Shown here: in pieces, positions 1,531 through 23,445 of the stretch
Position numbering within the stretch: position 1 is the first letter of the stretch
Layout: the number at the start of each line of letters is the position of its first letter
Assembly: GCA_963662465.1 (NCBI GenBank)
Contig: OY759599.1
Location: forward strand, 3,328,001 to 3,392,000
Direction: 5' to 3'
DNA: 64,000 bases
From: Desulfatiglandales bacterium
Lineage (GTDB): Bacteria; Desulfobacterota; DSM-4660; Desulfatiglandales; Desulfatiglandaceae
Notes under the pieces: model-generated
The model's input: the letters and a program-made list of their open reading frames with translations, nothing else
The model's database searches: none
What the model was told of the DNA's origin: nothing
Program-made: the position numbers and the translations under genes

Positions 1531-3756
1531 GTGCGACGTGATGTCGCGTAAGTAGCTGTTTTGTATATTGATATAAACCATATAACAAAACCCTGTTTTC
1601 TGCAACAGGTATTCTACCGGGACATGCGTCCGGAGTAATCCGGGGGTGTGAAGCTCTCGGGACAATGAAGCCCGCGGAATCTTCCGGGAGAGGGAACCGT
1701 GAGGAGACCTCAACTCTGCAAGCATCATGCGGTAAGGGAGCTAGAATTGAGCAGTATGGTTAACACATGTGAATCGCTGCAGCGTCGTCACGAGAACAAG
1801 CCTAAGATGCTGAAAGGCTTGGACCAAACGGTATGTGGCCAGGTATGGGGGCTGCGAACTCCTCCATCGCGGATGTCGTGCCACCGGCGTACGGGCGGAA
1901 CCTAACCTGCTCGGGTACTTACGCGGAACATGGTAAGCCCGTAATCCTCCCCACGGGGAAAGCGAACCGCAAGGTGAGCCCATGGGGTTGCGGGTAAAGG
2001 ATGTCAGAAAAAAGCAAATGCCCCGTTGTAATGATGGGGATACGGATTGACGGTGTAATCACCTACATGATCCGGCTCGAAAGAGAGCAGACTTCTGACC
2101 GGTGTTCCATTGCGAGATAATTTGTAGAATCTTCAAACAGGGGAAAGCAAATGACGGTGGCCATTTTGGCGACTGGTGCACCTTTGGACGGAACAAACTG
2201 GTGGAAATCCATAAACTGGAGAACCGCCGGCGAGCACGTTAGAAGACTGCAGGTGCGTATCGCAAAGGCTGTGAAGGAAAAGCGATGGGGAAAGGTTAAG
2301 GCAATACAATGGCTTTTGACCCATTCGTTTTATGCCAAGTTGTTGGCCATCAAGCGCGTTACTTCCAACCGAGGTAAACGCACGCCGGGAGTGGATAAAG
2401 TTATATGGTCCACCCACATTGACAAAATGCAGGCGGCAAAAGACCTGCACCGAAGAACTTACCGACCCAAACCGCTGCGCCGAATTTACATACCCAAGAA
2501 AAACGGCAAGAAACGCCCATTGGGCATTCCCACCATGAAAGACAGAGCCATGCAGGCGTTGCACAAACTGGCCCTTGATCCGGTGGCGGAAACCACCGCC
2601 GATCCGAACTCTTATGGGTTCAGAGCCTATCGAGGATGTGCGGATGCCATCGGTCATTGTTTTATTTCTCTGGCCAAGAGCTACTCACCCGCATGGATTT
2701 TGGAGGGAGACATAAAGGCCTGTTTTGACGAAATCAGCCATCAATGGATGCTCGAAAATATCCCCATGGATAAACGGACGCTTCAGAAATGGCTGAAATC
2801 CGGTTATGTGGAAGGAGGCAAGCTCTATCCGACTTACAGAGGAACCCCGCAAGGCGGGATTATCTCTCCAACATTGGCTAATATGGTCCTGGATGGTCTG
2901 GAAGCGGCAGCCAAAAGTACCGCCCCGATAAGAATCCAGGGCAATATACGGTCCAAGATAAACGTAATCCGTTACGCTGATGATTTCATCATCACCGGGA
3001 ATTCCAGAGAGATGCTAAATGAGATCAAGCTGGAAATTGAAGCATTTATGGAGCGAAGAGGACTTTCGCTTTCAGCGGAAAAGACGTTGATCACAAGGAT
3101 AGAAGAAGGATTTGATTTTCTCGGACAGAATCCACGCAAATACCAGGGGAAGCTCTTGATAAAGCCCTCTCGTAAAAACGTGAAAGCCTTCTTAGGCAAT
3201 ATCCGGCAAACGATCCGAAAGCATGCGGCATCAAGAGCCGACACCCTGATTAAAGTGCTCAATCCCAAAATCAGGGGATGGGCCAATTACCACAGGCATG
3301 TGGTTTCCGGTAGAACTTTCGGGCTTGTAGATCACCGTATCTACAGCTATATTTGGCAATGGATGAGGAGGAAACATTCGGGCAAGAGTAAGAGTTGGCT
3401 GGTGGATAAATACTGGTCAAAAGGATCTCGTCCGTGGTCCTTTTCAGCGGTGATCAAGGACGGCTATGCGAAATCCGCTAGAATTGAACTTGAGAAAGCT
3501 TACGACGTCAAGATAAAACGCCATGTCAAAATTCGAGGGGATGCGAACCCCTTCGATCCGAAATATGAACACTATTTCAGGAAACGATATGCCCAACGCA
3601 GTCAGCAGAAGGCAGACAGGCGTAAAGAGCATAAAACGTCACAACCGGGTAGCCCCGAAAGGGCTTGCCTTTGGAATGCTTGAGCCGTGTGCGTTTAACG
3701 GCGCACGCACGGTTCTTAGAGGGCTGGGGGATGGCAACATCCCCTGGCTACTCGAC
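1531..3756 (+). mobile_element. Group II intron family A copy 1 (CL1-like/IIB), intact
   Basis: 5' GTGCG; domain V GAGCCGTGTGCGTTTAACGGCGCACGCACGGTTC; domain VI ending CTACTCGAC; RT ORF in domain IV. Confidence 0.93.
2151..3683 (+). CDS. ltrA: Group II intron reverse transcriptase/maturase, no HNH endonuclease domain
   Basis: RVT_N-type N-terminus (VRRLQVRIAKA), RPLGIP, PQGG, YADD, domain X LNPKIRGWANY. Confidence 0.95.
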   Translation: MTVAILATGAPLDGTNWWKSINWRTAGEHVRRLQVRIAKAVKEKRWGKVKAIQWLLTHSFYAKLLAIKRVTSNRGKRTPGVDKVIWSTHIDKMQAAKDLHRRTYRPKPLRRIYIPKKNGKKRPLGIPTMKDRAMQALHKLALDPVAETTADPNSYGFRAYRGCADAIGHCFISLAKSYSPAWILEGDIKACFDEISHQWMLENIPMDKRTLQKWLKSGYVEGGKLYPTYRGTPQGGIISPTLANMVLDGLEAAAKSTAPIRIQGNIRSKINVIRYADDFIITGNSREMLNEIKLEIEAFMERRGLSLSAEKTLITRIEEGFDFLGQNPRKYQGKLLIKPSRKNVKAFLGNIRQTIRKHAASRADTLIKVLNPKIRGWANYHRHVVSGRTFGLVDHRIYSYIWQWMRRKHSGKSKSWLVDKYWSKGSRPWSFSAVIKDGYAKSARIELEKAYDVKIKRHVKIRGDANPFDPKYEHYFRKRYAQRSQQKADRRKEHKTSQPGSPERACLWNA

Positions 3757-5981
3757 GTGCGACGTGATGTCGCGTAAGTAGCTGTTTTGTATATCAATAT
3801 AAACCATATAACAAAACCCTGTTTTCTGCAACAGGTATTCTACCGGGACATGCGTCCGGAGTAATCCGGGGGTGTGAAGCTCTCGGGACAATGAAGCCCG
3901 CGGAATTTTCCGGGAGAGGAAACCGTGAGGGGACCTCAACTCTGCAAGCATCATGCGGTAAGGGAGCTAGAATTGAGCAGTACGGTTAACACATGTGAAT
4001 CGCTGCAGCGTCGTCACGAGAACAAGCCTAAGATGCTGAAAGGCTTGGACCAAAAGGTACGTGGCCAGGAACGGAGGCTGCGAACTCCTCCGTCGCGGAT
4101 GTTGTGCCACCGGCGTAAAGGCGGAACCTAACCTGCTCTGGTACTTACGCGGAACATGGTAAGCCCGTAATCCTCCCCACGGGGAAAGCGAACCGCAAGG
4201 TGAGCCCATGGGGTTGCGGGTAAAGGATGTCAGAAAAAGCGAATGCCTCGTTGTAATGATGGGGATACGGATTGAAGGTGTAACTACCTACATGATCCGG
4301 CTCGAAAGAGAGCAGACTTCTGACCGGTGTTCCATTGCGAGATAATCTGTCGAATCTTTAAACAGGGGAAAGCAAATGACGGTGGCCGTTTTGGCGACTG
4401 GTGCACCTTTGGACGGAACAAACTGGTGGAAATCCATAAACTGGAAAACCGTCGGCGAGCACGTTAGAAGACTGCAGGTGCGTATCGCAAAGGCTGTGAA
4501 GGAAAAGCGATGGGGAAAAGTCAAGGTGATACAGTGGCTTTTGACTCATTCGTTTTATGCCAAGTTGTTGGCTATCAAGCGCGTTACTTCCAACCGGGGT
4601 AAACGCACACCGGGAGTGGATAAAGTCATATGGTCCACCCACATTGACAAAATGCAGGCGGTAAACGACCTGCGCCGAAGAGCCTACCGACCCAAACCGC
4701 TGCGCCGAATTTACATACCCAAGAAAAACGGCAAGAAACGCCCATTGGGCATTCCCACAATGAAGGACAGAGCCATGCAGGCGTTGTACAAATTGGCGCT
4801 TGATCCGGTGGCGGAAACCACCGCCGATCCGAACTCTTACGGGTTCAGACCCTATCGGGGATGTGCGGATGCCATCGGTCAGTGTTTTATTTCTCTGGCC
4901 AAGCGCCACTCACCCGTATGGATTCTGGAGGGAGATATAAAGGCCTGTTTTGATGAAATCAGCCATCAATGGATGCTCGAAAATATCCCTATGGATAAAC
5001 GGACGCTTCAGAAATGGCTGAAATCCGGTTATGTGGAAGGAGGCAAGCTCTATCCAACTTACAGAGGAACCCCGCAAGGCGGGATTATCTCTCCAACATT
5101 GGCTAATATGGTCCTGGATGGTCTGGAAGCGGCAGCCAAAAGTACCGCCCCGATAAGAATCCAGGGCAATATACGGTCCAAGATAAACGTAATCCGTTAC
5201 GCTGATGATTTCATCATCACCGGGAATTCCAGAGAGATGCTAAATGAGATCAAGCTGGAAATTGAAGCATTTATGGAGCGAAGAGGACTTTCGCTTTCAG
5301 CGGAAAAGACGTTGATCACAAGGATAGAAGAAGGATTTGATTTTCTCGGACAGAATCCACGCAAATACCAGGGGAAGCTCTTGATAAAGCCCTCTCGCAA
5401 AAACGTGAAAGCCTTTTTAGGCAATATCCGGCAAACAATCCGAAAGCATGCGGCATCAAGAGCCGACATTCTGATTAAAGTACTCAATCCCAAAATCAGG
5501 GGGTGGGCCAATTACCACAGGCATGTGGTTTCCGGTAGAACTTTCGGGCTTGTAGATCACCGTATCTACAGCTATATTTGGCAATGGATGAGGAGGAAAC
5601 ATTCGGGCAAGAGTAAGAGTTGGCTGGTGGATAAATACTGGTCAAAAGGATCTCGCCCGTGGTCCTTTTCAGCGGTGATCAAGGACGGCTATGCGAAATC
5701 CGCCAGAATTGAACTTGAGAAAGCTTACGACGTCAAGATAAAACGCCATGTCAAAATTCGAGGGGATGCGAACCCCTTCGATCCGAAATATGAACAATAT
5801 TTCAGGAAACGATATGCCCAACGCAGTCAGCAGAAGGCAGACAGGCGTAAAGAGCATAAAACGTCACAACCGGGTAGCCCCGAAAGGGCTTGCCTTTGGA
5901 ATGCTTGAGCCGTGTGCGTTTAACGGCGCACGCACGGTTCTTAGAGGGCTGGGGGATGGTGACATCCCCTGGCTACTCGAC
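3757..5981 (+). mobile_element. Group II intron family A copy 2, intact, abutting copy 1
   Basis: Junction CTCGAC|GTGCGAC at 3756/3757; same domain structure as copy 1. Confidence 0.93.
4376..5908 (+). CDS. ltrA: Group II intron reverse transcriptase/maturase
   Basis: 510 aa, close paralog of 2151-3683, YADD intact. Confidence 0.95.
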   Translation: MTVAVLATGAPLDGTNWWKSINWKTVGEHVRRLQVRIAKAVKEKRWGKVKVIQWLLTHSFYAKLLAIKRVTSNRGKRTPGVDKVIWSTHIDKMQAVNDLRRRAYRPKPLRRIYIPKKNGKKRPLGIPTMKDRAMQALYKLALDPVAETTADPNSYGFRPYRGCADAIGQCFISLAKRHSPVWILEGDIKACFDEISHQWMLENIPMDKRTLQKWLKSGYVEGGKLYPTYRGTPQGGIISPTLANMVLDGLEAAAKSTAPIRIQGNIRSKINVIRYADDFIITGNSREMLNEIKLEIEAFMERRGLSLSAEKTLITRIEEGFDFLGQNPRKYQGKLLIKPSRKNVKAFLGNIRQTIRKHAASRADILIKVLNPKIRGWANYHRHVVSGRTFGLVDHRIYSYIWQWMRRKHSGKSKSWLVDKYWSKGSRPWSFSAVIKDGYAKSARIELEKAYDVKIKRHVKIRGDANPFDPKYEQYFRKRYAQRSQQKADRRKEHKTSQPGSPERACLWNA

Positions 5982-9767: not shown

Positions 9768-11626
9768 ATGACGGTGGCCGTTCTGGCGACTGGTGCACCT
9801 TTGGACGGAACAAACTGGTGGAAATCCATAAACTGGAAAACCGCCGGGGAGCATGTTAGAAGACTGCAGGTGCGTATCGCAAAGGCTGTGAAGGAAAAGC
9901 GATGGGGAAAAGTCAAGGTGATACAGTGGCTTTTGACTCATTCGTTTTATGCCAAGTTGTTGGCTATCAAGCGCGTTACTTCCAACCGGGGTAAACGCAC
10001 ACCGGGAGTGGATAAAGTCATATGGTCCACCCACATTGACAAAATGCAAGCGGTAAACGACCTGCGCCGAAGAGCCTACCGACCCAAACCGCTGCGCCGA
10101 ATTTACATACCCAAGAAAAACGGCAAGAAACGCCCATTGGGCATTCCCACAATGAAGGACAGAGCCATGCAGGCATTGTACAAATTGGCGCTTGATCCGG
10201 TGGCGGAAACCACCGCCGATCCGAACTCTTACGGGTTCAGACCCTATCGGGGATGTGCAGATGCCATCGGTCAGTGTTTTATTTCTCTGGCCAAGCGCTA
10301 CTCACCCGTATGGATTCTGGAGGGAGATATAAAGGCCTGTTTTGATGAAATCAGCCATCAGTGGATACTCGAAAATATCCCGATGGATAAACGGACGCTT
10401 CAGAAATGGCTGAAAGCCGGGTATGTAGAAGGAGGCAAGCTCTATCCGACATACAGAGGAACCCCGCAAGGCGGCTTATGCAAAGCTTTGCATAACCCGC
10501 CTTATGCCAAGTTGCCGATTATGCAAAGTAAACCGCTAAAGCTACCAGATTTCCAACACGTTCACTGAGTTTACTTTGCATAATATCACGGGTACCTCAA
10601 ACTTGAAATCCAATTAAACGATGCAGCATCCTTGGTTTATTTTGGATAAAATGATCTGGTTTTTTCCGACAAACGATTTTGTGAGCTTTTCGCTCAGTCA
10701 TCATTAGCAAAGATTATGCTAAGTAAATCAAAAAGAAACCCTTGAATTACAATGCGTTTTATGGCTTACTTTGCATAATTACTTTCTTTGCATAAGGCGG
10801 GATTATCTCTCCAACATTGGCTAATATGGTCCTGGATGGTCTGGAAGCGGCAGCCAAAAGCACCGCCCCGATAAGAATTCAGGGAAATATACGGTCCAAG
10901 ATAAACGTAATCCGCTACGCTGATGATTTTATCATCACCGGGAATTCCAGAGAGATGCTAAATGAGATCAAGCTGGAAATTGAAGCATTTATGGAGCGAA
11001 GAGGTCTTTCGCTTTCAGCGGAAAAGACGTTGATCACAAGGATAGAAGAAGGATTTGATTTTCTCGGACAAAGTTCACGCAAATACGGAGGAAAACTTTT
11101 GATAAAGCCCTCTCGCAAAAACGTGAAAGCCTTTTTAGGCAATATCCGGAAAACAATCCGAAAGCATGCGGCATCAAGAGCCGACATTCTGATTAAAGTA
11201 CTCAATCCCAAAATCAGGGGGTGGGCCAATTACCACAGGCATGTGGTTTCCGGTAGAACTTTCGGGCTTGTAGATCACCGTATCTACAGCTATATTTGGC
11301 AATGGATGAGGAGGAAACATTCGGGCAAGAGTAAGAGTTGGCTGGTGGATAAATACTGGTCAAAAGGATCTCGCCCGTGGTCCTTTTCAGCGGTGATCAA
11401 GGACGGCTATGCGAAATCCGCCAGAATTGAACTTGAGAAGGCTTACGACGTCAAGATAAAACGCCATGTCAAAATTCGAGGGGATGCGAACCCCTTCAAT
11501 CCGAAATATGAACAATATTTCAGGAAACGATATGCCCAACGCAGTCAGCAGAAGGCAGACAGGCGTAAAGAGCATAAAACGTCACAACCGGGTAGCCCCG
11601 AAAGGGCTTGCCTTTGGAATGCTTGA
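9768..11626 (+). pseudogene. ltrA: Intron RT split by insertion at PQGG
   Basis: Two ORF halves, 9768-10568 and 10817-11626. Confidence 0.92.
10476..10795. mobile_element. Miniature non-coding element, variant 1 (RIT-like ends)
   Basis: GGCGGC|20-bp palindrome|CCCGCC|body with TTATGC(A/C)AAG inverted ends|GGCGGG; absent from copies 1-2. Confidence 0.88.
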
Positions 11627-11761
11627 GCCGTGTGCGTTTAACGGCGCACGCACGGTTCTTAGAGGGCTGGGGGATGGCAACATCCCCTGGCTACTCGACC
11701 AGACCCGCTGGACAGCGGGGGAACTTAACGTCGAAAATTGGTAGAAATAGGTAAAATCGCA

Positions 11762-12937
11762 GTGGAAACGACGATTCAGGGCATCTTTCTTCTTGGCTAT
11801 GCCCTCTATAATCAGACGCATTGTCTTCCGGAACATATTCGTGAGGCGGCTCATCGTCTGATGTCCTGCCGCACGTCCATTCTGGGGAGGCACGTCCAGG
11901 CATGTCCGGATGGTCACTTCCAGAGGGTCTGGTATAACTCGTGTAAACACCGTATGTGCCCACTCTGCGCCTTCACCCAGGTTGAGCGGTGGCTGGCAAA
12001 ACAAAAGGCCCGACTCCTGAGTGCCGAGCATTTCCACGTTATTTTCACCATCTCCGATGAATTGCATGACTTATGGCGGCTGAACCGTAAAGTCATGGCC
12101 AATCTGCTGTTCAAAAGCACGACCGAGACCCTTTCCGAACTCCTTGGAGACCCGAAGCATTTGGGGGCCAAAGTCGGCATCATTGCCTCGTTGCATACCT
12201 GGAGCCGAAAATTGGATTTTCATCCCCATTTGCATTGTTTGGTGACGGCCGGTGGTCTGTCCGCCGGCGAGTGGATTGCTTCATCAAAAACGTTTCTTCT
12301 GCCGTTTGGCATTGTCCGGGCGGTTTTTCGAGGAAAATATCTCCACTATTTGAGAAAAGCCCTTGCCCGTGAAGAACTGATTCTGCCCGAAGGCATGGGA
12401 CCGCAGCAGGCGCGAAACCTGTTTAATAAGTTGGGGCGCCGTAAGAAGTGGAACGTTAAACTCAAGGAGACCTATTCATACGGAGAAGGGGTCTTAATTT
12501 ACCTGGCCCGGTATCTGAGAGGCGGACCGATCTCAAATAAACGCATCTTCCGCATTGAAAACGGAAACGTCACCTTCAATTACGGTCGTGAGCGGATAAG
12601 ACTCATTACTTTGCCGATTCAAACCTTTATCGGCCGCTACCTGCAACACGTTCCCCTGGCGAATTCCATGATGGTGCGTTCATACGGCCTTTACCATCAC
12701 AACGCAAAAAAAGAACTGGCACGCTGCCGGGAAATACTGGGACAACCGGCACTTGAAGATACGGAATTTCTGGACTGGCAGAGTCTGTGGCAGCAGCGAA
12801 GCGACGAGCAACCGGATTGTTGCCCAGTTTGCGGGAAACGTCTTATTACGTTGAAAATAGTTGCACCGGTAAGAAAGTCAAAAAGTCTTCCGAGGTTCAA
12901 TAAGGACCCGGATACGGTATATGCACAGGCAGCGTAA
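11762..12937 (+). CDS. IS91-family (Y2 HUH) transposase with N-terminal Zn-binding domain
   Basis: CRT..LG, NSCKHRMCPLC, HVIFTI, LHTW, HPHLH, YLARY; GTG start by analogy with the second copy. Confidence 0.9.
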   Translation: METTIQGIFLLGYALYNQTHCLPEHIREAAHRLMSCRTSILGRHVQACPDGHFQRVWYNSCKHRMCPLCAFTQVERWLAKQKARLLSAEHFHVIFTISDELHDLWRLNRKVMANLLFKSTTETLSELLGDPKHLGAKVGIIASLHTWSRKLDFHPHLHCLVTAGGLSAGEWIASSKTFLLPFGIVRAVFRGKYLHYLRKALAREELILPEGMGPQQARNLFNKLGRRKKWNVKLKETYSYGEGVLIYLARYLRGGPISNKRIFRIENGNVTFNYGRERIRLITLPIQTFIGRYLQHVPLANSMMVRSYGLYHHNAKKELARCREILGQPALEDTEFLDWQSLWQQRSDEQPDCCPVCGKRLITLKIVAPVRKSKSLPRFNKDPDTVYAQAA

Positions 12938-13178
12938 AACGATAATAAACATGAGCATATTCAAAAAGGCACTTGAATGGCGAGACGTTTGGTAAAGGGA
13001 TAAATAACGCGATATTTCAGGGTTTTTGACGGATCATGCAATTGAAAGCAGGAATTTTATCATCCTTAACCGGCCATGACGGGTTAAAAAAAGGTCACGC
13101 GACAGCTGAGAAGCTCCCTCAATCTCCATAGCCGATCTCCTGCTTCCGGCAAAGTATGTGCTGATGACCCGCAGCTCT

Positions 13179-13309
13179 GTCCAACACCCCGTTGAACTGG
13201 AAAACTGGTATTGGGAGATAAACCGAAATGCGTTGGTTCCTACGAAGTCACCAGCTGGAATGATAATATATTTTTTTGAACCCGTTTTCCAGTTAACTAA
13301 ACGATGGTT
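13179..13309 (+). other. attC site of IS91-like cassette, R' reads GAT
   Basis: GTCCAAC-acccc-GTTGAACTGGAAAAC...GTTTTCCAGTTAAC-taaac-GATGGTT. Confidence 0.75.
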
Positions 13310-13557
13310 GCAGTGGAAACACGCCGTGCTATTCAAATCTACAAAATGCTATAAATGCAGTTGAAAGTGGTGGAACGATCAGGGTAGGTAGGGGCTCTTT
13401 TACTGAGCCATACACCCTAAACAATCAAAAATCCATAAACGTGTATGGCGGATGGAATGAGACCTTTTCAATTCAAAGCCCGAATACAACTTTCCTGGTA
13501 ACGCCAAGAGTATCCAACGGTGGATTGAAGTTCGGGTGCGTCACCTTTAAACCGTAA
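13303..13557 (+). pseudogene. Start-less 3' gene fragment (84 codons)
   Basis: Open frame DGCSGNTPCYSNLQNAINAVESGGTIRV...VYGGWNETF...FKP* begins exactly at the attC crossover position. Confidence 0.55.
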
Positions 13558-13650
13558 GGCTTTTTAGTTGCCGTCGTCTAAAGACGACTTTCGGCCATTA
13601 CATGTAGTTCGTTTGGGCAAAATGAGAAGATTTTGGGAATGTAAATTATA

Positions 13651-13887
13651 ATGAGTGAATTCGAGGTCATTGGAGAGATAGGTGCCGTCGAGTTGATCGC
13701 TAGAGGCCCTGGTATCCGCGACATAACCCGATTGAACCGTCAATACGGAAAGGGGAAATGGAGAAAACTTAAGGGATACGCCCCTGTTCGTTTAAGAACA
13801 GGCCGCGTCCGAATGGCTGAGCTTCATTGGTATGAGGCCCATGGAATTGGCAAAAGAGAAATGAAACGAAAGCGGTATGTGGAATAA
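13651..13887 (+). CDS. Small basic hypothetical protein, putative TA toxin
   Basis: 78 aa, WRKLKG and ELHWYEAHGIG motifs, paired with a small acidic ORF. Confidence 0.7.
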   Translation: MSEFEVIGEIGAVELIARGPGIRDITRLNRQYGKGKWRKLKGYAPVRLRTGRVRMAELHWYEAHGIGKREMKRKRYVE

Positions 13888-13889
13888 TC

Positions 13890-14126
13890 ATGAAAGAATC
13901 CTTCGAAAAACAATATATATATGTCGTGTGTATCGATAACACCGACTATCCGACATCCCTAGAGCGGCACAAGATCTACAAAGTTGTTCCAGACGAGGAT
14001 GCAGCGGCAGATGGCGACATTAGAGTCATTGATGAAAGCGGAGAAGATTACCTCTACTCGTCAGAGAGGTTCGTTCCAATCCGTGTACCTGCTGCTGTAA
14101 GGAAATCGCTGGAGATGCTTGCTTAG
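13890..14126 (+). CDS. Small acidic hypothetical protein, putative TA partner
   Basis: 78 aa, RVIDESGEDYLY motif, 2 bp after the upstream ORF. Confidence 0.7.
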   Translation: MKESFEKQYIYVVCIDNTDYPTSLERHKIYKVVPDEDAAADGDIRVIDESGEDYLYSSERFVPIRVPAAVRKSLEMLA

Positions 14127-14732
14127 AGAAAGGCCGGGCTTGCTAATTTGGCCGATCAGGTGCGCCAATGCTAAGTTCAGGTTTTCGCACTGGGGTAGCT
14201 TTGGCGTGGATTATCCGGTTCTATGCCTTTGTTACGTCTGTATGCGTAGGGATTCGAATGTACAAAGGAATAAGTCGTCATGTTTTATGAAAGTGAGGCC
14301 TAATTACTCCGTGATCCCGTGTAGTTAAAAACTTCGAGATCGGTTATGGGGATAGGGAGGAGCCTCACAGCTCCCCCCTCCCACACCACCGTACATACGG
14401 GTCCGTATACGGCGATTCGGCTGGTCAGAGCAGGCAAGGATAAAACAGGTTCCGCCCTACCGGGTTTTCCAGAATGCGACGTTATCGACCTTTCAGCTAC
14501 TGCTGCATTAGACCAATAAGTACACGTTCTTTGACAACCACAACCATTTACCCCTGCCATTCGGCAGGTGGCACCGTTCGGGCCTTCACCGGAGTGAGGC
14601 CTCCCTTTATTCAGGGCTCGTTTCTCCGGCTTAATATGCCCTCTGCTGACTCCCGTTACGCGGTGGGCTCCCCTTTCGGTTCGCTCACTCGTAGTTTCCG
14701 CAATCTGTCGAGTCCATTTGTTTGTGTTTCCC

Positions 14733-16738
14733 CGCATAAGTCTAAATGTTGTGGGGTTGTATAACCCATCAAAATTAAAAGGCGTTTTCGGTAAACAAGA
14801 ATGCATTATGAACCTTCATAACTTGAATCCAAGGTAAGTCAAATGTTTGGCCGTTGGCTAATTCAAAGGGACTTTTATGAGCATTTTTTGCGCCAGGTAA
14901 AAATGGGACAAAATTCCTGATAGTCGCATGTGCTCGAAAGAAAAGACTTGCCCATTTCTTATCTCGAAAACTCTCAATTTGTTTTAGTTTACGTTTGATT
15001 CCTTTTAAATAATTGTCAACAATGGAGGTTGTTTGTTTTATCCCATTTCTATTTTTATGAGAGGTATAATGAGTGGCATTTTCTTTTAATTCTACTACCC
15101 TCTTTTTTAGTAATGGATGAGAAAATGCATCGTCATCTAATGCCTTAATCTTTACTTCCAAGTTAACTTTAGATGTGGATGTTTTCAAAACTTTCTTAAA
15201 TTTTTTATAAAGCTTGTCCACTTCTTGGTCGGTACATTTTGATTCTTTTTGATATTTTGATAGTGCATCGTAGAAGTTTTTCAAACAATGACGATGGCAA
15301 TATCCGACCCAAATGTTATGGAATACGGTCTTGATAGCATTGGTTGAGGCTTTCCACTTATCTTTTGTTACACCAAGGATTTTGAAGTCGATTTTTTGCA
15401 AAAAATCCTCAAATGAACCGCACAGGTTTTCTTCATCAACATGATCAACATAATCGGAGTGCCATACTAATAAATTTTCAGGATCGACCATAACTACAGA
15501 ATAAGTTCTTAAATTTGGTTCTTTTTCAAAGCCCTCATCTTCCTGTAGATATCCTGAGCCTTTCACTCCTGCTCTTGTTAGTATTGTTGCAGGATGAAGT
15601 GTTCCTGCCCATCGATTCCAGTTCAAGATGGTCTGTTTGCTTTTGACACTTTTTTTGCCAATAATTTTAAGGCTTTCGATGGCTCCTTGAATGCTCGCAT
15701 TAAAACGGTACATATTCCGAAATACGTGCCCAATAATCTCTATACCAAAATTCTTTTCCCTTGGGAGAAAGCTGGGAACAAGAGAGAACTTTTGTTTGCA
15801 CTTCCGGCATTGTATCATGCGGATTGGGAATGTCTGTTGTTCTCCTCCATTCATTATTGTTTTTCGAGGATTCCCGCGGAAACCAGATAAAATATATTCT
15901 TTAGGTCCAGAACATGTTGAATTATGGCCTGTGTGGTGATCATATTTATCGAGTTTATCTAATACTTCAATGCGAAACTTCTTACTATCTTTTACGAGAG
16001 CATGATAGCTTTCGGTGTTATTATAAGGAAAGATATATGTTTGATTTCCTCGTTTAGAAACAAGGTCTTCCATTTTCTTTTTTACATTTTCGATTATGGA
16101 TTTATCAAAAGATTTTAACATCCCTATCTCAAATGCAATACTGATTGTACTATCACGACTTTTTACATTATTCAATTTTTTAGTAATATTACTTATCATT
16201 GAACGAATTGAATAAAAGATTCTAATTTTCTGTCGATCCCGTTGTGTTTTTGGAATGCTTTTTTTCCCTTTTATTGGCTTACAAATATCCCATAATTGAC
16301 TTATTAACCTACCAAGTTCATCAATAAGAGCAGACAATGTTACATAAAAATATTGCAATGATTGAAACATCTCCCTTTCATTGATCCATGATCTGATGGC
16401 ATTAATGCATTTCTCAATTTCAAAGAAAATCTCAGGATACTGTTTTGGATCGTAATAACATTGTCTTGCAAGTCTGTTTTGAGCTTTGTCCAACATTGTC
16501 AAAGCTCTCTTAATATTATTAATCATGTGCAACCTCTCTAATTTAACATAGACTGTTGCACTATGATTATGCACACTTATCAAAAAAAGTCCCTAACTTT
16601 TTTCCGCTAAGGCGAATTCAGGAAAAAATGTTTGGCCTCACGAAATGCGCTTTGATTAGGATATTGATTCTGAACCGTTTAACAGATGAAATAATTTCAA
16701 TATGTTAGAGTAAACCCCACAACATTTAGACTTATGCG
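14733..16738 (-). mobile_element. Insertion sequence, IS256/ISH6 (Mutator-like) superfamily
   Basis: Perfect 26-bp TIR CGCATAAGTCTAAATGTTGTGGGGTT; 8-bp TSD TGTTTCCC (14725-14732, 16739-16746); empty site visible in intron copy 24351-25176. Confidence 0.9.
14775..16583 (-). CDS. Putative transposase (602 aa)
   Basis: Only long ORF between the TIRs; QEDEG, TKD, CHRH (CxxH) and TTSIVDN motifs; start codon uncertain. Confidence 0.8.
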   Translation of the reverse strand: MISVHNHSATVYVKLERLHMINNIKRALTMLDKAQNRLARQCYYDPKQYPEIFFEIEKCINAIRSWINEREMFQSLQYFYVTLSALIDELGRLISQLWDICKPIKGKKSIPKTQRDRQKIRIFYSIRSMISNITKKLNNVKSRDSTISIAFEIGMLKSFDKSIIENVKKKMEDLVSKRGNQTYIFPYNNTESYHALVKDSKKFRIEVLDKLDKYDHHTGHNSTCSGPKEYILSGFRGNPRKTIMNGGEQQTFPIRMIQCRKCKQKFSLVPSFLPREKNFGIEIIGHVFRNMYRFNASIQGAIESLKIIGKKSVKSKQTILNWNRWAGTLHPATILTRAGVKGSGYLQEDEGFEKEPNLRTYSVVMVDPENLLVWHSDYVDHVDEENLCGSFEDFLQKIDFKILGVTKDKWKASTNAIKTVFHNIWVGYCHRHCLKNFYDALSKYQKESKCTDQEVDKLYKKFKKVLKTSTSKVNLEVKIKALDDDAFSHPLLKKRVVELKENATHYTSHKNRNGIKQTTSIVDNYLKGIKRKLKQIESFRDKKWASLFFRAHATIRNFVPFLPGAKNAHKSPFELANGQTFDLPWIQVMKVHNAFLFTENAF

Positions 16739-17186
16739 TGTTTCCCGACCAATAGGCCGGGCTCGTCAGGGCTATGACTCGAAATGTTCCTGACGCCAGG
16801 GTTTTGTTTTACCGGTTTTCCCTTATATTCCGGTAGATTTCAGTTGCAGTTCCCTACGAGACGCAACGGGCCTCCCGGGGTAAACACGTGTCTTTCCGCA
16901 CACGAGCGCCGACAACGTGCCTGGCCTATAGTAGTTAGAGGACTTTGTTCTGTGTTGCGGACTCGTCCCACCAGACCCGCCTCACTCGATTTCTGTTCGT
17001 CGCCCCGTGCGTTTGCGGTGCCCTGCCGCAGCAAGGCCACTGCCTCTCCAGGCCCGTTACCGGGTACCCGGTTGTGATACCGCTACACCCTTCGCCACTA
17101 CCTGGCTGGGTCTGGGACTTGCGTAAAATATCGGAAGCATGGTACATTGCGCGCACCCTTAAGAACACGTGCCGTGCCCGGCACAC

Positions 17187-17270
17187 AACCAAACGCTCCA
17201 CCAGACGCCTGACAGTCCTGCGGTCCTGGCAGGGGCCGAAGGAGGAGGCGCTGGTGAGCTTGTCGTTGGC
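17187..17270 (+). other. attC site flanked by introns at both ends
   Basis: (GGTT 14342-14345)|AAC-caaac-GCTCCACCAGACGCC...GGCGCTGGTGAGC-ttgtc-GTTGGC. Confidence 0.9.
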
Positions 17271-17903
17271 ATGCGACGTGATGTCGCGTAAGTAGCTGTT
17301 TTATATATTGATATAAACCATATAACAAAACCCTGTTTTCTGCAACAGGCATTCTACCGGGACATGCGTCCGGAGTAATCCGGGGGTGTGAAGCTCTCGG
17401 GACAATGAAGCCCGCGGAATTTTCCGGAAGAGGGAACCGTGAGGGGACCTCAACTCTGCAAGCATCATGCGGTGAGGGAGCTAGAATTGAGCAGTACGGT
17501 TAACACATGTGAATCGCTGCAGCGTCGTCACGAGAACAAGCCTAAGATGCTGAAAGGCTTGGACCAAAAGGTACGTGGCCAGGAACGGAGGCTGCGAACT
17601 CCTCCGTCGCAGATGTCGTGCCACCGGCGTAGGGGCGGAACCTAACCTGCTCGGGTACTTACGCGGAACATGGTAAGCCCGTAACCCTCCCCACGGGGAA
17701 AGCGAACCGCAAGGTGAGCCCATGGGGTTGCGGGTAAAGGATGTCAGAAAAAGCGAATGCCTCGTTGTAATGATGGGGATACGGATTGATGGTAATCACC
17801 GACATGATCCGGCTCGAAAGAGAGCAGACTTCTGACCGGTGTTCCATTGCGAGATAATCTGTAGAATCTTCAAACAGGGGAAAGCAGCCAGTGAAACGGG
17901 CGA

Positions 17904-19761
17904 ATGACGGTGGCCGTTTTGGCGACTGGTGCACCTTTGGACGGAACAAACTGGTGGAAATCCATAAACTGGAAAACCGCCGGGGAGCATGTTAGAAGAC
18001 TGCAGGTGCGTATCGCAAAGGCTGTGAAGGAAAAGCGATGGGGAAAAGTCAAGGTGATACAGTGGCTTTTGACTCATTCGTTTTATGCCAAGTTGTTGGC
18101 TATCAAGCGCGTTACTTCCAACCGGGGTAAACGCACACCGGGAGTGGATAAAGTCATATGGTCCACCCACATTGACAAAATGCAAGCGGTAAACGACCTG
18201 CGCCGAAGAGCCTACCGACCCAAACCGCTGCGCCGAATTTACATACCCAAGAAAAACGGCAAGAAACGCCCATTGGGCATTCCCACAATGAAGGACAGAG
18301 CCATGCAGGCATTGTACAAATTGGCGCTTGATCCGGTGGCGGAAACCACCGCCGATCCGAACTCTTACGGGTTCAGACCCTATCGGGGATGTGCGGATGC
18401 CATCGGTCAGTGTTTTATTTCTCTGGCCAAGCGCTACTCACCCGTATCGATTCTGGAGGGAGATATAAAGGCCTGTTTTGATGAAATCAGCCATCAATGG
18501 ATGCTCGAAAATATCCCGATGGATAAACGGACGCTTCAGAAATGGCTGAAAGCCGGGTATGTAGAAGGAGGCAAGCTCTATCCGACATACAGAGGAACCC
18601 CGCAAAGCGGGTTATGCAAAGCTTTGCATAACCCGCCTTATGCAAAGAAAGTAATTATGCAAAGTAAACCGTAAAAGCCATAATAATTCAAGAGATTCTT
18701 GTTGATTTGCTTAGCATAATCTCCACTTATGGTGAATGAGAAAAAGTTCAAAAAATCATTAGACAAAACAAAGGAGCTATTTTTATCCAAAACAAACGAA
18801 GAATGCTGCATCATTTACTTGGCTTTCAAGTCTGAAGTAGTCGTGATATTATGCAAAGTAAATTCAGTGCATATGCTTGAAATATTGCACCTTAACTGAT
18901 TTACTTTGCATAATCGTTAACTTTGCATAAGGCGGGATTATCTCTCCAACATTGGCTAATATGGTCCTGGATGGTCTGGAAGCGGCAGCCAAAAGCACCG
19001 CCCCGATAAGAATTCAGGGAAATATACGATCCAAAATAAACGTAATCCGCTACGCTGATGATTTTATCATCACCGGGAATTCCAGAGAGATGCTAAATGA
19101 GATCAAGCTGGAAATTGAAGCATTTATGGAGCGAAGAGGTCTTTCGCTTTCAGCGGAAAAGACGTTGATCACAAGGATAGAAGAAGGATTTGATTTTCTC
19201 GGACAAAGTTCACGCAAATACGGAGGAAAACTTTTGATAAAGCCCTCTCGCAAAAACGTGAAAGCCTTTTTAGGCAATATCCGGAAAACAATCCGAAAGC
19301 ATGCGGCATCAAGAGCCGACATTCTGATTAAAGTACTCAATCCCAAAATCAGGGGGTGGGCCAATTACCACAGGCATGTGGTTTCCGGTAGAACTTTCGG
19401 GCTTGTAGATCACCGTATCTACAGCTATATTTGGCAATGGATGAGGAGGAAACATTCGGGCAAGAGTAAGAGTTGGCTGGTGGATAAATACTGGTCAAAA
19501 GGATCTCGCCCGTGGTCCTTTTCAGCGGTGATCAAGGACGGCTATGCGAAATCCGCCAGAATTGAACTTGAGAAGGCTTACGACGTCAAGATAAAACGCC
19601 ATGTCAAAATTCGAGGGGATGCGAACCCCTTCGATCCGAAATATGAACAATATTTCAGGAAACGATATGCCCAACGCAGTCAGCAGAAGGCAGACAGGCG
19701 TAAAGAGCATAAAACGTCACAACCGGGTAGCCCCGAAAGGGCTTGCCTTTGGAATGCTTGA
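17904..19761 (+). pseudogene. ltrA: Intron RT split by insertion
   Basis: Halves 17904-18674 and 18952-19761. Confidence 0.92.
18612..18930. mobile_element. Miniature non-coding element, variant 2 (body inverted relative to variant 1)
   Basis: AGCGGG|palindrome|CCCGCC|body|GGCGGG. Confidence 0.88.
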
Positions 19762-19979
19762 GCCGTGTGCGTTTAACGGCGCACGCACGGTTCTTAGAGG
19801 GCTGGGGGATGGCAACATCCCCTGGCTACTCGACTTGATGAGCTTCTGCAAAGGAGAAGGAAGATGTTAAGCGTGTATTTGCCGGTAATTGGAAACATCA
19901 ATAAGAGGCCTCGTATCTCGGACTTCGCTTCAGCGCGTTAGCCACTTGAAAATCAGCCTGTAAAGGAGAATGCTTAGCT

Positions 19980-20225
19980 ATGCCAGTAGTCTTCAGGTAC
20001 AAGGGATATCGTTTTTTCTTTTTCTCAAATGAAGGAGATCCACCTGAACCGATTCACATACATGTGCGACGTGGTGAGGCTACAGCAAAGTTCTGGATGT
20101 CACCTCAGATCAGCCTTGCGGAATCATACAATATGAACTCTTCTGAACTCCGCGAACTCATGCGAGTGGCTGAAAAAAACAGGAAACTCATTGAAAGGTA
20201 TTGGGATGAACACTTTAGCATTTAA
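19980..20225 (+). CDS. DUF4160-family protein (TA-like)
   Basis: MPVVFRYKGYRFFFFSNE..EPIHIHV..AKFW. Confidence 0.85.
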   Translation: MPVVFRYKGYRFFFFSNEGDPPEPIHIHVRRGEATAKFWMSPQISLAESYNMNSSELRELMRVAEKNRKLIERYWDEHFSI

Positions 20226-20475
20226 ACCACGTGCCAAAAAAGTGACTTTTGACTCGGACAACATGTGGGTAGCACTCACCGATGGACGTCAGCTCGGTGT
20301 TCCTATTGCTTACTTCCCACGACTCCTCAATGCAACTGAAGCTCAAAGAGATGATTACATCATCAGCGGCGGAGGTAGTGGCCTGCATTGGGAGGAACTC
20401 GACGAGGACATTTCTGTTAAAGGCCTTTTATTGGGAATTGGTGATAGGACTCGACCTGACAGAAAGGCGGCATGA
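20206..20475 (+). CDS. DUF2442-family protein (TA-like partner)
   Basis: LTDGRQLGVPIAYFPRL..GLHWEELDEDISV. Confidence 0.85.
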   Translation: MNTLAFKPRAKKVTFDSDNMWVALTDGRQLGVPIAYFPRLLNATEAQRDDYIISGGGSGLHWEELDEDISVKGLLLGIGDRTRPDRKAA

Positions 20476-20494
20476 CTGCTTTCAGCCACTTCCT

Positions 20495-20624
20495 TGCTAA
20501 CAGTAACTACAGCAGACAGTCAGAGCGCTGGCGTAGTTGGCAGATAAGCGTGATTCGAAATTGAAATTGATCTTTTTATTCCAAGATGCGCGAGCACTGG
20601 TCGTTGCTCAATATGGCGTTAATC
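20495..20624 (+). other. attC site (degenerate)
   Basis: R'' TGCTAAC nearly complements the upstream R' GTTAGCC (19937-19943); imperfect arms; R' GTTAATC. Confidence 0.6.
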
Positions 20625-20869
20625 GCAACCCGTCATTAGCATTTTTGAAGGGGAAAGAAACTGTTCAGCGCTCATTCGCCGATAACGGGGATAACGAATA
20701 AGGAAGAAGATCATTTTTTAAAGGCGAGTTGTGCAATGTCCATTTATTTCTATCATATTCCGCTGAATGTGCCAATAGCCATCGAATGTGAAAAAAATAA
20801 GTGATATGCTTATAGCTAGGTCCAAGCTTTTTTGTCATATAATTCCGTGGGGTTAAGAAAATCTATGAG

Positions 20870-20954
20870 CGCCAACCAAACGCTCCAGCGGACCCCTGAA
20901 AGTCTGTCGGTTCTAGCGGGGACCGGTGGAGGGGCCGCTGAACTTGTCGTTCGC
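20870..20954 (+). other. attC site
   Basis: CGCCAAC-caaac-GCTCCAGCGGACCCC...GGGGCCGCTGAAC-ttgtc-GTTCGC. Confidence 0.88.
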
Positions 20955-21587
20955 GTGCGACGTGATGTCGCGTAAGTAGCTGTTTTATATATTGATATAA
21001 ACCATACAACAAAACCCTGTTTTCTGCAACAGGTATTCTACCGGGACATGCGTCCGGAGTAATCCGGGGGTGTGAAGCTCTCGGGACAATGAAGCCCGCG
21101 GAATTTTCCGGAAGAGGGAACCGTGAGGGGACCTCAACTCTGCAAGCATCATGCGGTGAGGGAGCTAGAATTGAGCAGTACGGTTAACACATGTGAATCG
21201 CTGCAGCGTCGTCACGAGAACAAGCCTAAGATGCTGAAAGGCTTGGACCAAAAGGTACGTGGCCAGGAACGGAGGCTGCGAACTCCTCCGTCGCAGATGT
21301 CGTGCCACCGGCGTAGGGGCGGAACCTAACCTGCTCGGGTACTTACGCGGAACATGGTAAGCCCGTAATCCTCCCCACGGGGAAAGCGAACCGCAAGGTG
21401 AGCCCATGGGGTTGCGGGTAGAGGATGTCAGAAAAAGCGAATGCTCCGTTGTAATGATGGGGATACGGATTGATGGTAATCACCGACATGATCCGGCTCG
21501 AAAGAGAGCAGACTTCTGACCGGTGTTCCATTGCGAGATAATCTGTAGAATCTTCAAACAGGGGAAAGCAGCCAGTGAAACGGGCGA

Positions 21588-23445
21588 ATGACGGTGGCCG
21601 TTCTGGCGACTGGTGCACCTTTGGACGGAACAAACTGGTGGAAATCCATAAACTGGAAAACCGCCGGGGAGCATGTTAGAAGACTGCAGGTGCGTATCGC
21701 AAAGGCTGTGAAGGAAAAGCGATGGGGAAAAGTCAAGGTGATACAGTGGCTTTTGACTCATTCGTTTTATGCCAAGTTGTTGGCTATCAAGCGCGTTACT
21801 TCCAACCGGGGTAAACGCACACCGGGAGTGGATAAAGTCATATGGTCCACCCACATTGACAAAATGCAAACGGTAAACGACCTGCGCCGAAGAGCCTACC
21901 GACCCAAACCGCTGCGCCGAATTTACATACCCAAGAAAAACGGCAAGAAACGCCCATTGGGCATTCCCACAATGAAGGACAGAGCCATGCAGGCATTGTA
22001 CAAATTGGCGCTTGATCCGGTAGCGGAAACCACCGCCGATCCGAACTCTTACGGGTTCAGACCCTATCGGGGATGTGCGGATGCCATCGGTCAGTGTTTT
22101 ATTTCTCTGGCCAAGCGCTACTCACCCGTATGGATTCTGGAGGGAGATATAAAGGCCTGTTTTGATGAAATCAGCCATCAATGGATGCTCGAAAATATCC
22201 CGATGGATAAACGGACGCTTCAGAAATGGCTGAAAGCCGGGTATGTAGAAGGAGGCAAGCTCTATCCGACATACAGAGGAACCCCGCAAGGCGGGTTATG
22301 CAAAGCTTTGCATAACCCGCCTTATGCAAAGAAAGTAATTATGCAAAGTAAACCGTAAAAGCCATAATAATTCAAGAGATTCTTGTTGATTTGCTTAGCA
22401 TAATCTCCACTTATGGTGAATGAGAAAAAGTTCAAAAAATCATTAGACAAAACAAAGGAGCTATTTTTATCCAAAACAAACGAAGAATGCTGCATCATTT
22501 ACTTGGCTTTCAAGTCTGAAGTAGTCGTGATATTATGCAAAGTAAATTCAGTGCATATGCTTGAAATATTGCACCTTAACTGATTTACTTTGCATAATCG
22601 TTAACTTTGCATAAGGCGGGATTATCTCTCCAACATTGGCTAATATGGTCCTGGATGGTCTGGAAGCGGCAGCCAAAAGCACCGCCCCGATAAGAATTCA
22701 GGGAAATATACGGTCCAAGATAAACGTAATCCGCTACGCTGATGATTTTATCATCACCGGGAATTCCAGAGAGATGCTAAATGAGATCAAGCTGGAAATT
22801 GAAGCATTTATGGAGCGAAGAGGTCTTTCGCTTTCAGCGGAAAAGACGTTGATCACAAGGATAGAAGAAGGATTTGATTTTCTCGGACAAAGTTCACGCA
22901 AATACGGAGGAAAACTTTTGATAAAGCCCTCTCGCAAAAACGTGAAAGCCTTTTTAGGCAATATCCGGAAAACAATCCGAAAGCATGCGGCATCAAGAGC
23001 CGACATTCTGATTAAAGTACTCAATCCCAAAATCAGGGGGTGGGCCAATTACCACAGGCATGTGGTTTCCGGTAGAACTTTCGGGCTTGTAGATCACCGT
23101 ATCTACAGCTATATTTGGCAATGGATGAGGAGGAAACATTCGGGCAAGAGTAAGAGTTGGCTGGTGGATAAATACTGGTCAAAAGGATCTCGCCCGTGGT
23201 CCTTTTCAGCGGTGATCAAGGACGGCTATGCGAAATCCGCCAGAATTGAACTTGAGAAGGCTTACGACGTCAAGATAAAACGCCATGTCAAAATTCGAGG
23301 GGATGCGAACCCCTTCGATCCGAAATATGAACAATATTTCAGGAAACGATATGCCCAACGCAGTCAGCAGAAGGCAGACAGGCGTAAAGAGCATAAAACG
23401 TCACAACCGGGTAGCCCCGAAAGGGCTTGCCTTTGGAATGCTTGA
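21588..23445 (+). pseudogene. ltrA: Intron RT split by insertion
   Basis: Halves 21588-22358 and 22636-23445. Confidence 0.92.
22296..22614. mobile_element. Miniature non-coding element, variant 2
   Basis: GGCGGG|TTATGCAAAGCTTTGCATAA|CCCGCC|body|GGCGGG. Confidence 0.88.

Follow-up and report, generated by a model that had tools for sequence, protein, structure and literature searches.

A 64-kb stretch of the genome of a Desulfatiglandales bacterium (the window; its source genome assembly is denoted G000) carries three short inserts, E1, E2 and E3, each placed directly after the Pro-Gln (PQ) codons of a group II intron reverse transcriptase (RT) gene. These inserts are almost certainly non-autonomous, miniature forms of the elements known as RITs (recombinase in trio), which, in the passages available from Van Houdt 2012 (PMC3414803), consist of three overlapping tyrosine recombinase genes in about 3,500 bp. 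As judged from homology at both ends, they are internal-deletion derivatives of a ritA-ritB-ritC lineage. Taken as a whole, the observations are quite probably best explained by a mini-RIT, belonging to a lineage which targets the PQGG codons of group II intron RTs, that moves through a circle bearing two crossover cores.

Anatomy of the inserts

Two terms are used throughout: P is a 20-bp perfect palindrome, and the body is the part of the insert between an inner and a right hexamer. In E1, the left hexamer, GGCGGC (10470..10475, plus strand), is foreign to the RT family of the window, whose native hexamer is GGCGGG, and equals the right-junction hexamer at G000:4989742. It is followed by P (10476..10495, without strand) and by the inner hexamer (10496..10501), which reads CCCGCC on the plus strand, that is, GGCGGG on the minus strand, and is a putative second crossover spacer. 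The 294-bp body (10502..10795, minus strand) has its ritC-side end next to P and contains six TTATGCNAAG motifs, as well as a relic of the ritC 3' end (about 10595-10634, minus strand). The right hexamer, GGCGGG (10796..10801, plus strand), corresponds to the native GG codons of the RT.

E2 and E3 have the same layout with the opposite body orientation. E2 comprises a left hexamer AGCGGG (18606..18611, plus strand; either a point mutation or a carried hexamer, no source site having been found), P (18612..18631, without strand), the inner hexamer CCCGCC (18632..18637, minus strand), a body on the plus strand (18638..18930) whose ritA-side end adjoins P, and the native right hexamer GGCGGG (18931..18936, plus strand). 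E3 comprises a left hexamer GGCGGG (22290..22295, plus strand), P (22296..22315, without strand), CCCGCC (22316..22321, minus strand), a plus-strand body (22322..22614) which also has its ritA-side end next to P and keeps a ritC relic at about 22483-22522, and the native GGCGGG (22615..22620, plus strand). The bodies of E2 and E3 are identical, also to the oppositely oriented G000:292487-292779, and that of E1 is inverted relative to them, with 80.3% identity.

All the coordinates and motifs given for the three inserts in a preliminary description, made from the letters of the window, were borne out on re-checking; its label of the bodies as non-coding is refined by the ~40 bp of ritC 3' end that they keep. 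P occurs three times in the window versus none in 100 shuffles, and TTATGCNAAG 29 times versus a shuffle mean of 0.40, with 24 of the 29 inside the elements (six per body and two per palindrome) and five in RT open reading frames (ORFs). P probably represents recombinase arms set back to back.

Descent from a RIT parent

The body of E1 matches both ends of a 3440-bp trio (L086) from another genome: the first 118 bp at 86.6% and the last ~130 bp (133 bp) at 82.7% identity, the latter match taking in the last codons of ritC. The proposal of a non-autonomous mini-RIT with a tyrosine-recombinase parent has thus been upheld. The ORFs of L086 (414, 338 and 352 amino acids) overlap, each has the RH...Y signature and matches tyrosine-recombinase models, and the best matches of the three proteins are A, B and C of the pHG1 trio, in that order (30, 25 and 35% identity). 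From its position and the relevant passage of PMC2864759, the pHG1 trio would correspond to the published rit genes. One of its ends shows a hexamer, a 20-bp palindrome, an inverted hexamer and doubled TTATGCC, that is, the same layout as the mini; this shared layout, together with the homology to L086, makes the mini a RIT deletion derivative with generic RIT end anatomy.

Complete trios (L019, L050, L063 and L086) are found between two RT halves in other genomes, with bodies of 3440-3681 bp; another full-length element, L162, measures 3545 bp. The trio proteins of L019, L050, L063 and L089 are 64-68% identical to those of L086. The parent trio holds exactly three catalytic tyrosine recombinases (338-414 amino acids), no fourth ORF of at least 200 amino acids and no DDE enzyme. 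Further minis of 283-296 bp also stand at PQGG: L017, which shares a genome with L086, L040, and L161, L163 and L068, which share a genome with L162 and resemble it at the ends only. Since the mini holds no ORF, and none of the three recombinase genes that define a RIT, it is a derivative and not an autonomous member of the group.

Within G000, doubled TTATGC at 17-bp spacing gives 16 matches, all of them mini ends bar one unrelated, so that the search for such ends around three recombinases, suggested in the preliminary description, returned the minis and no parent. Matches to Phage_integrase number 58 in this assembly, among them other trios with different ends. The mini end pattern was found in none of 100 related genomes, many of them incomplete assemblies. 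The recombinases would then have acted in trans, from a cognate RIT outside this assembly.

Copies in the genome and target choice

Seven complete copies and a partial one, in which the P end is deleted, were found in G000, all at PQ|GG and in three group II RT families. Six lie in the RT family of the window and two in unrelated ones (G000:3215916 and 4989421). Their bodies form three lineages with 80-85% identity between lineages. The body of copy 292786 is 100% identical to those of E2 and E3, yet its opposite end adjoins P; moreover, the bodies at 3215916 and 4989421 equal each other. P stands on the RT 5' side in 7/7 complete copies, and in 7/7 each end has the doubled motifs with 17-bp spacing and one of the two adjoins P. 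In G000 and in two further genomes (G102 and G103), identical bodies lie either way round while P keeps its side.

A scan of species-representative genomes for P gave at least 118 loci, for 80 of which the flanks covered reached at most 5 kb, and for the other 38 ~300 bp. Among the matches listed, 28 follow PQ codons, and 25 of these have an adjacent RT match; L109, with a CCNCAR codon match and no RT, was left out of this set. Among the matches listed, P heads many recombinase trios with differing ends and targets, and the record titles include deltaproteobacteria, gammaproteobacteria, Clostridia, Chlamydiae and Ktedonobacteraceae. Two palindrome matches were found in viral contigs, neither in an RT. 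The early view that the PQGG codons are targeted therefore holds for all the G000 copies and extends to the 28 PQ-type loci elsewhere: the lineage integrates within the PQGG motif of group II RT genes, at the codon pair that follows PQ.

Several other palindrome-bearing loci were observed. The same 20-bp palindrome is kept by RITs of widely differing end motifs and targets (L017-L134), which suggests that P and the ends may be bound by different subunits. A remoter RIT (L026:1590-5020; 28-39% protein identity to L086) has the same palindrome and lies in the same PQGG motif, but its register is shifted and P stands 3' of it, which hints at convergent targeting. At L164 (G103:5557185), P joins the 5' half of an RT to non-RT DNA via GGCGGC, which is the inner hexamer of the mini L068, 8.7 kb off. 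In G000, a lone RIT-type 20-bp palindrome without a body lies beside an integrase C-terminal fragment (4723182), and a further family resembling RITs, the third of this genome (281938, 2870075 and 7045550), has AAATCCAAAC/TTATCCAAAC ends and a palindrome and seems to interrupt other integrase genes at their RHSF codons.

Junction hexamers

The junctions of the seven complete G000 copies, written as left / inner (reverse complement) / right, read GGCGGG / GGCGGG / GGCGGG at 292786 and in E3, GGCGGG / GGAGGC / GGGGGT at 3215916, GGCGGC / GGCGGG / GGCGGG in E1, AGCGGG / GGCGGG / GGCGGG in E2, GGCGGG / GGCGGG / GGCGGC at 4989421 and GGCGGG / GGGGGT / GGCGGG at 6842832. The claim that the inner hexamer is the inverted local target did not survive: the two differ at 2/7 of these sites, and inner and left hexamers differ in 20 of the 28 PQ-type loci elsewhere. 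The inner hexamer does not reproduce the local target. It still reads Gly-Gly in 26 of the 28 PQ-type loci, with third positions free; hexamers sampled at earlier RT targets would be expected to show just such variation within Gly-Gly coding.

Junctions were scored in three target families whose native hexamer is given by empty alleles of the same genome: the window RT (five intact copies), the target of RIT-B, a second, full-length and unrelated RIT family of G000 (one empty), and RT family alpha of G102 (four empty). The left hexamer of L158, short by one G of a run, was scored as native. Non-native hexamers were found at 0/14 right, 5/13 left and 6/13 inner positions (Fisher p 0.016 and 0.006, for sites that are not independent). 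Furthermore, 9 of the 11 foreign hexamers are found at another insertion site of the same genome, seven as a right junction and two at a remnant. These counts point to a simple junction rule, by which the right hexamer is native and the left and inner ones are often foreign. Two RT families of G103 carry each other's right hexamer on the left, in agreement with this rule; family gamma of that genome was kept outside the count, its sole empty relative (95%) lacking four bases at the site.

Contigs, rather than reads, of four out of 24 sequencing runs were also checked; two runs (X19 and X20), possibly from the source sample, were not counted. In X21 and X1, which come from different studies, contigs skip the 327-bp insert at the 4989421 site, implying a native GGCGGC, the letters in between being marked as not known. 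An X1 contig also shows the body inverted beside the right flank.

As for the mutated left hexamers of the preliminary description, AGCGGG at 18606 may well be a mutation, and for GGCGGC at 10470 transfer from the site at G000:4989421 is the better reading.

RIT-B was observed at G000:1582172-1585584, 2491143-2494554, 4393523-4401667 and 7140234-7143646, one copy having a ~4.7-kb insertion, with a remnant at 5169549-5169979 and an empty site at 7133578. It has its own palindrome, with an asymmetric centre, and its own target, and it obeys the same right-native rule.

Proposed two-core circle

The movement of the element through a two-core circle, considered as a route in its own right, is fairly likely. 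The mobile unit would be the body plus the inner hexamer plus P. Recombination between the left and right junctions, with the right hexamer kept, would close a circle on the native hexamer of the donor, with a joint of the form end-h-P-h'-end (h and h' being the hexamers), departure occurring by either excision or copy-out. The circle would thus carry two 6-bp crossover cores, inverted to each other and sharing P, either of which could recombine with a further PQGG target despite some mismatch in the 6-bp spacer, to give the product target-h-P-h'-body-native hexamer. As both spacers point towards P, the palindrome would always land on the 5' side, and the orientation of the body would be set by the core used. 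The used spacer would become the left hexamer and the unused one would stay as the inner hexamer; with both retained, one copy could log up to two earlier targets.

Several observations match what this route predicts. A hop from a 4989421-type site would be predicted to yield E1, with its GGCGGC / GGCGGG hexamers and a body that is 98.3% identical to the one there and in the same orientation. L157, L158 and L050 are derivable from other G102 copies, in what is a loose test with only two hexamer states. The predicted end-h-P-h'-end joint was found at seven loci in a scan of metagenome contigs: in L141 the trio is permuted around this joint and its termini overlap by 55 bp, the form to be expected when a circle or a collapsed tandem is assembled; L136, L138 and L139 are of unassigned type, being too short or incomplete. 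In addition, the spare core could recombine with a second intron copy and fuse RT halves. Two loci look like by-products of such an event: L045, with P between two RT 5' halves, and L187, on a Bacillus plasmid, with a body between two RT 3' halves; the reciprocal half of the latter rearrangement was not found, the plasmid having no P at up to two mismatches.

A number of points weigh against this explanation. No cognate recombinase is found in G000, where the L086 proteins have matches at 25-35% only. L141 is not separable from a tandem array and opens with 54 unexplained bases, and L135 (PQGG-type, with two diverged trios), L137 and L140 resemble tandem arrays. If AGCGGG of E2 is taken as a mutation, the left count falls to 4/13 (p 0.041), and no source site is known for AGCGGG and TAATGG in the scored set or for GGAGGC at 3215916. 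The intact relatives of the RT at 3215916 carry GGGGGG, one change away from both junction hexamers and so non-discriminating, and one X21 contig is an empty or related allele of the 4989421 RT with GGCGGG, not GGCGGC. Finally, the intact inverted RIT-B copy at 7140208 has the P direction of the three non-inverted copies: integration through either core predicts that P flips, so this copy is unexplained by the pure model. P is flipped, with one mismatch, in the 405-bp RIT-B remnant at 5169979; the RIT-B copies imply either that P inverts on its own or that some inversions occur in place. The RIT-B junction pattern was found in 0/122 related genomes, many of them incomplete assemblies.

Body-less forms were also observed and fall outside the simple two-core model. 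In these (L029:5001-5046, in the PQGG of an RT, L118:301-346 and L018:5001), either two tandem palindromes are present, the second flanked like a body, or a single palindrome lies between direct hexamer repeats.

Alternative explanations

A first alternative, regarded as unlikely, is passive spread, in which the mini would have entered the intron family of the window once or twice and then been copied with the intron by retrohoming in trans, cassette shuffling or gene conversion. The 6/6 mini-bearing copies of this family share a 3'-half haplotype which is absent from the five intact copies, a further point against the two-core circle (such a split would arise at random once in 462, the copies not being independent), and the lack of a cognate recombinase in G000 would be in line with such co-spread. 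However, the bodies are 80-85% identical between lineages whereas the hosts differ by ~1%; three bodies are 100% identical, one of them inverted, even though 9-15 positions distinguish the 5' halves of their hosts; and one same body occurs in two unrelated RT families. Intact introns are identical within subfamilies and may date from after the time of the recombinase. In view of the identical bodies in hosts with 9-15 differences, the mini-bearing introns may rather be an older cohort, hit while the recombinase was present, with some co-spread with the intron possible.

The second alternative, an in-place invertible segment, is also improbable. Here a single integration with an inverted target copy would be followed by flipping of the body between the inner and right hexamers, which would account for a body flanked by inverted hexamers, for identical bodies in both orientations and, as a flip of the body alone, for the unflipped asymmetric P of RIT-B at 7140208. 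The inner hexamer, however, is often not the local target, and at 7140208 it differs from the native one at 4/6 positions; flipping would be expected to place a foreign hexamer at the right junction of some sites, which was seen in 0/14 cases; and end-P-end junctions are not predicted. The opposite-strand joint in the X1 contig represents another copy and not switching at one locus. The possibly invertible element once suggested has no direct support, and in-place inversion is not needed.

A DDE-type miniature inverted-repeat transposable element (MITE) with an ordinary 6-bp target duplication, the palindrome being due to chance or to a secondary rearrangement, would fit the terminal inverted repeats and the 6-bp direct repeat of E3, but is most improbable, as it is contradicted by the L086 homology, by a parent with three tyrosine recombinases and no DDE enzyme, by flanking hexamers that often differ and match other sites instead of forming an identical duplication, and by the presence of the same P at the head of many trios. 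The grounds on which the preliminary description would itself have been abandoned are likewise lacking: the hexamer is not fixed and recombinase-encoding parents exist.

Relation to known systems

The features of RITs in print include inverted repeats with overlapping palindromic sequence and a raised mobilome coverage, the circle not being resolved and no mechanism given in the passages available (PMC3414803, PMC5737581, PMC8138268, PMC2864759). The parent trio described here resembles them in its A-B-C order, its length of about 3.45 kb and its terminal inverted repeats with an adjoining palindrome; the mini differs in being devoid of all three genes, and its lineage in targeting the PQGG codons of group II RTs. 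According to a section of Janssen 2010 (PMC2864759), RITs interrupt genes of other mobile elements, such as radC and IS66 tnpA. In the corresponding part of a 2023 comparison of tyrosine-recombinase transposons, the target specificity, empty site and movement of RITs are listed as not tested (PMC10214605). The literature searched, Ricker 2013 and supplementary tables aside, yielded no account of mini-RITs, of RTs as RIT targets or of hexamers that RITs carry along.

The closest parallel for the junctions is the SE/Tn554 group, in which, in the portion of PMC10214605 concerned, 6 bp of the donor flank are copied to the opposite junction and the target's own 6 bp stay at the other. Several tyrosine recombinases, target specificity and the carried 6 bp are common to both, the expected junction pattern being found here (right 0/14 and left 5/13 non-native). 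In contrast, SE/Tn554 has been described with one joint and one carried hexamer, whereas here an extra palindrome and a second hexamer would provide two cores and both orientations; moreover, its gene sets (IntA/Tfp/IntB/Srap and TnpA/B/C) are not matched by the parent trio.

Two further systems offer partial analogies. In Tn916, the coupling sequences form a 6-bp overlap that tolerates mismatches and travels, by way of a circle, from the site occupied before; Tn916 differs in having one integrase plus Xis, conjugative transfer, AT-rich targets of low specificity and no palindrome module. Bacterial MITEs and other non-autonomous derivatives keep the ends, have the genes deleted and are mobilised in trans, as proposed for the mini, whose parent, unlike theirs, uses tyrosine recombinases and whose flanking repeat is no true target duplication.

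Host introns and surroundings

The RT ORFs split by E1, E2 and E3 lie at 9768..11626, 17904..19761 and 21588..23445, respectively, all on the plus strand. Read-through of the split genes ends after 256-266 amino acids, upstream of the YADD motif; the idea that the inserts disarm introns stands in the sense of a truncation of the RT ORF, and that far only. Two intact RTs of the same family, both on the plus strand and with an empty GGCGGG target, precede them (2151..3683 and 4376..5908).

The region 1-29300 of the window resembles a cassette array, with PIN, HEPN/nucleotidyltransferase and DUF4160/DUF2442 pairs and IS91-like transposases. Its group II introns stand directly after the GTTGGC/GTTCGC that closes attC-like hairpins, in cassette-sense orientation, and one is placed in tandem behind another intron (3757). 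A strict attC pattern gave no convincing sites; two Phage_integrase matches in 342-amino acid frames (G000:3287735 and 4425759) may be integron integrases.

Elsewhere in G000, the mini-bearing host intron 6841703-6843559 is a mosaic, its 5' part being close to one intact subfamily and its 3' part to the mini-bearing cohort, with the switch point seemingly upstream of PQGG. The most numerous RT family (at least 13 copies, PQGA; at 454600 and other sites) and a four-copy PQGG family (GGTGGG; at 356682 and other sites) are without a mini.

Significance

The end anatomy described above is generic to RITs; the value of the finding lies in the junction rule, which makes the mechanism of RIT movement testable. 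With it come a minimal cis unit (~325 bp), PQ|GG as a defined target, RitABC of the L086 type as candidate enzymes and sharp per-base predictions for the junctions. There is about an even chance that the RIT lineage is a dedicated and widespread hyperparasite of group II introns, whose two-core circle keeps, in the left and inner hexamers, a log of the two targets used last, the minis serving both as recorders of transposition history and as brakes on intron spread; mismatches would then fall mostly at wobble positions, the spacer being made up of the codons GGN-GGN. The finding is also a documented case of a mobile element that exploits another at its most conserved motif, and it offers a route to rearrangements between intron copies, by which, if true, the spare core would rearrange the chromosome.

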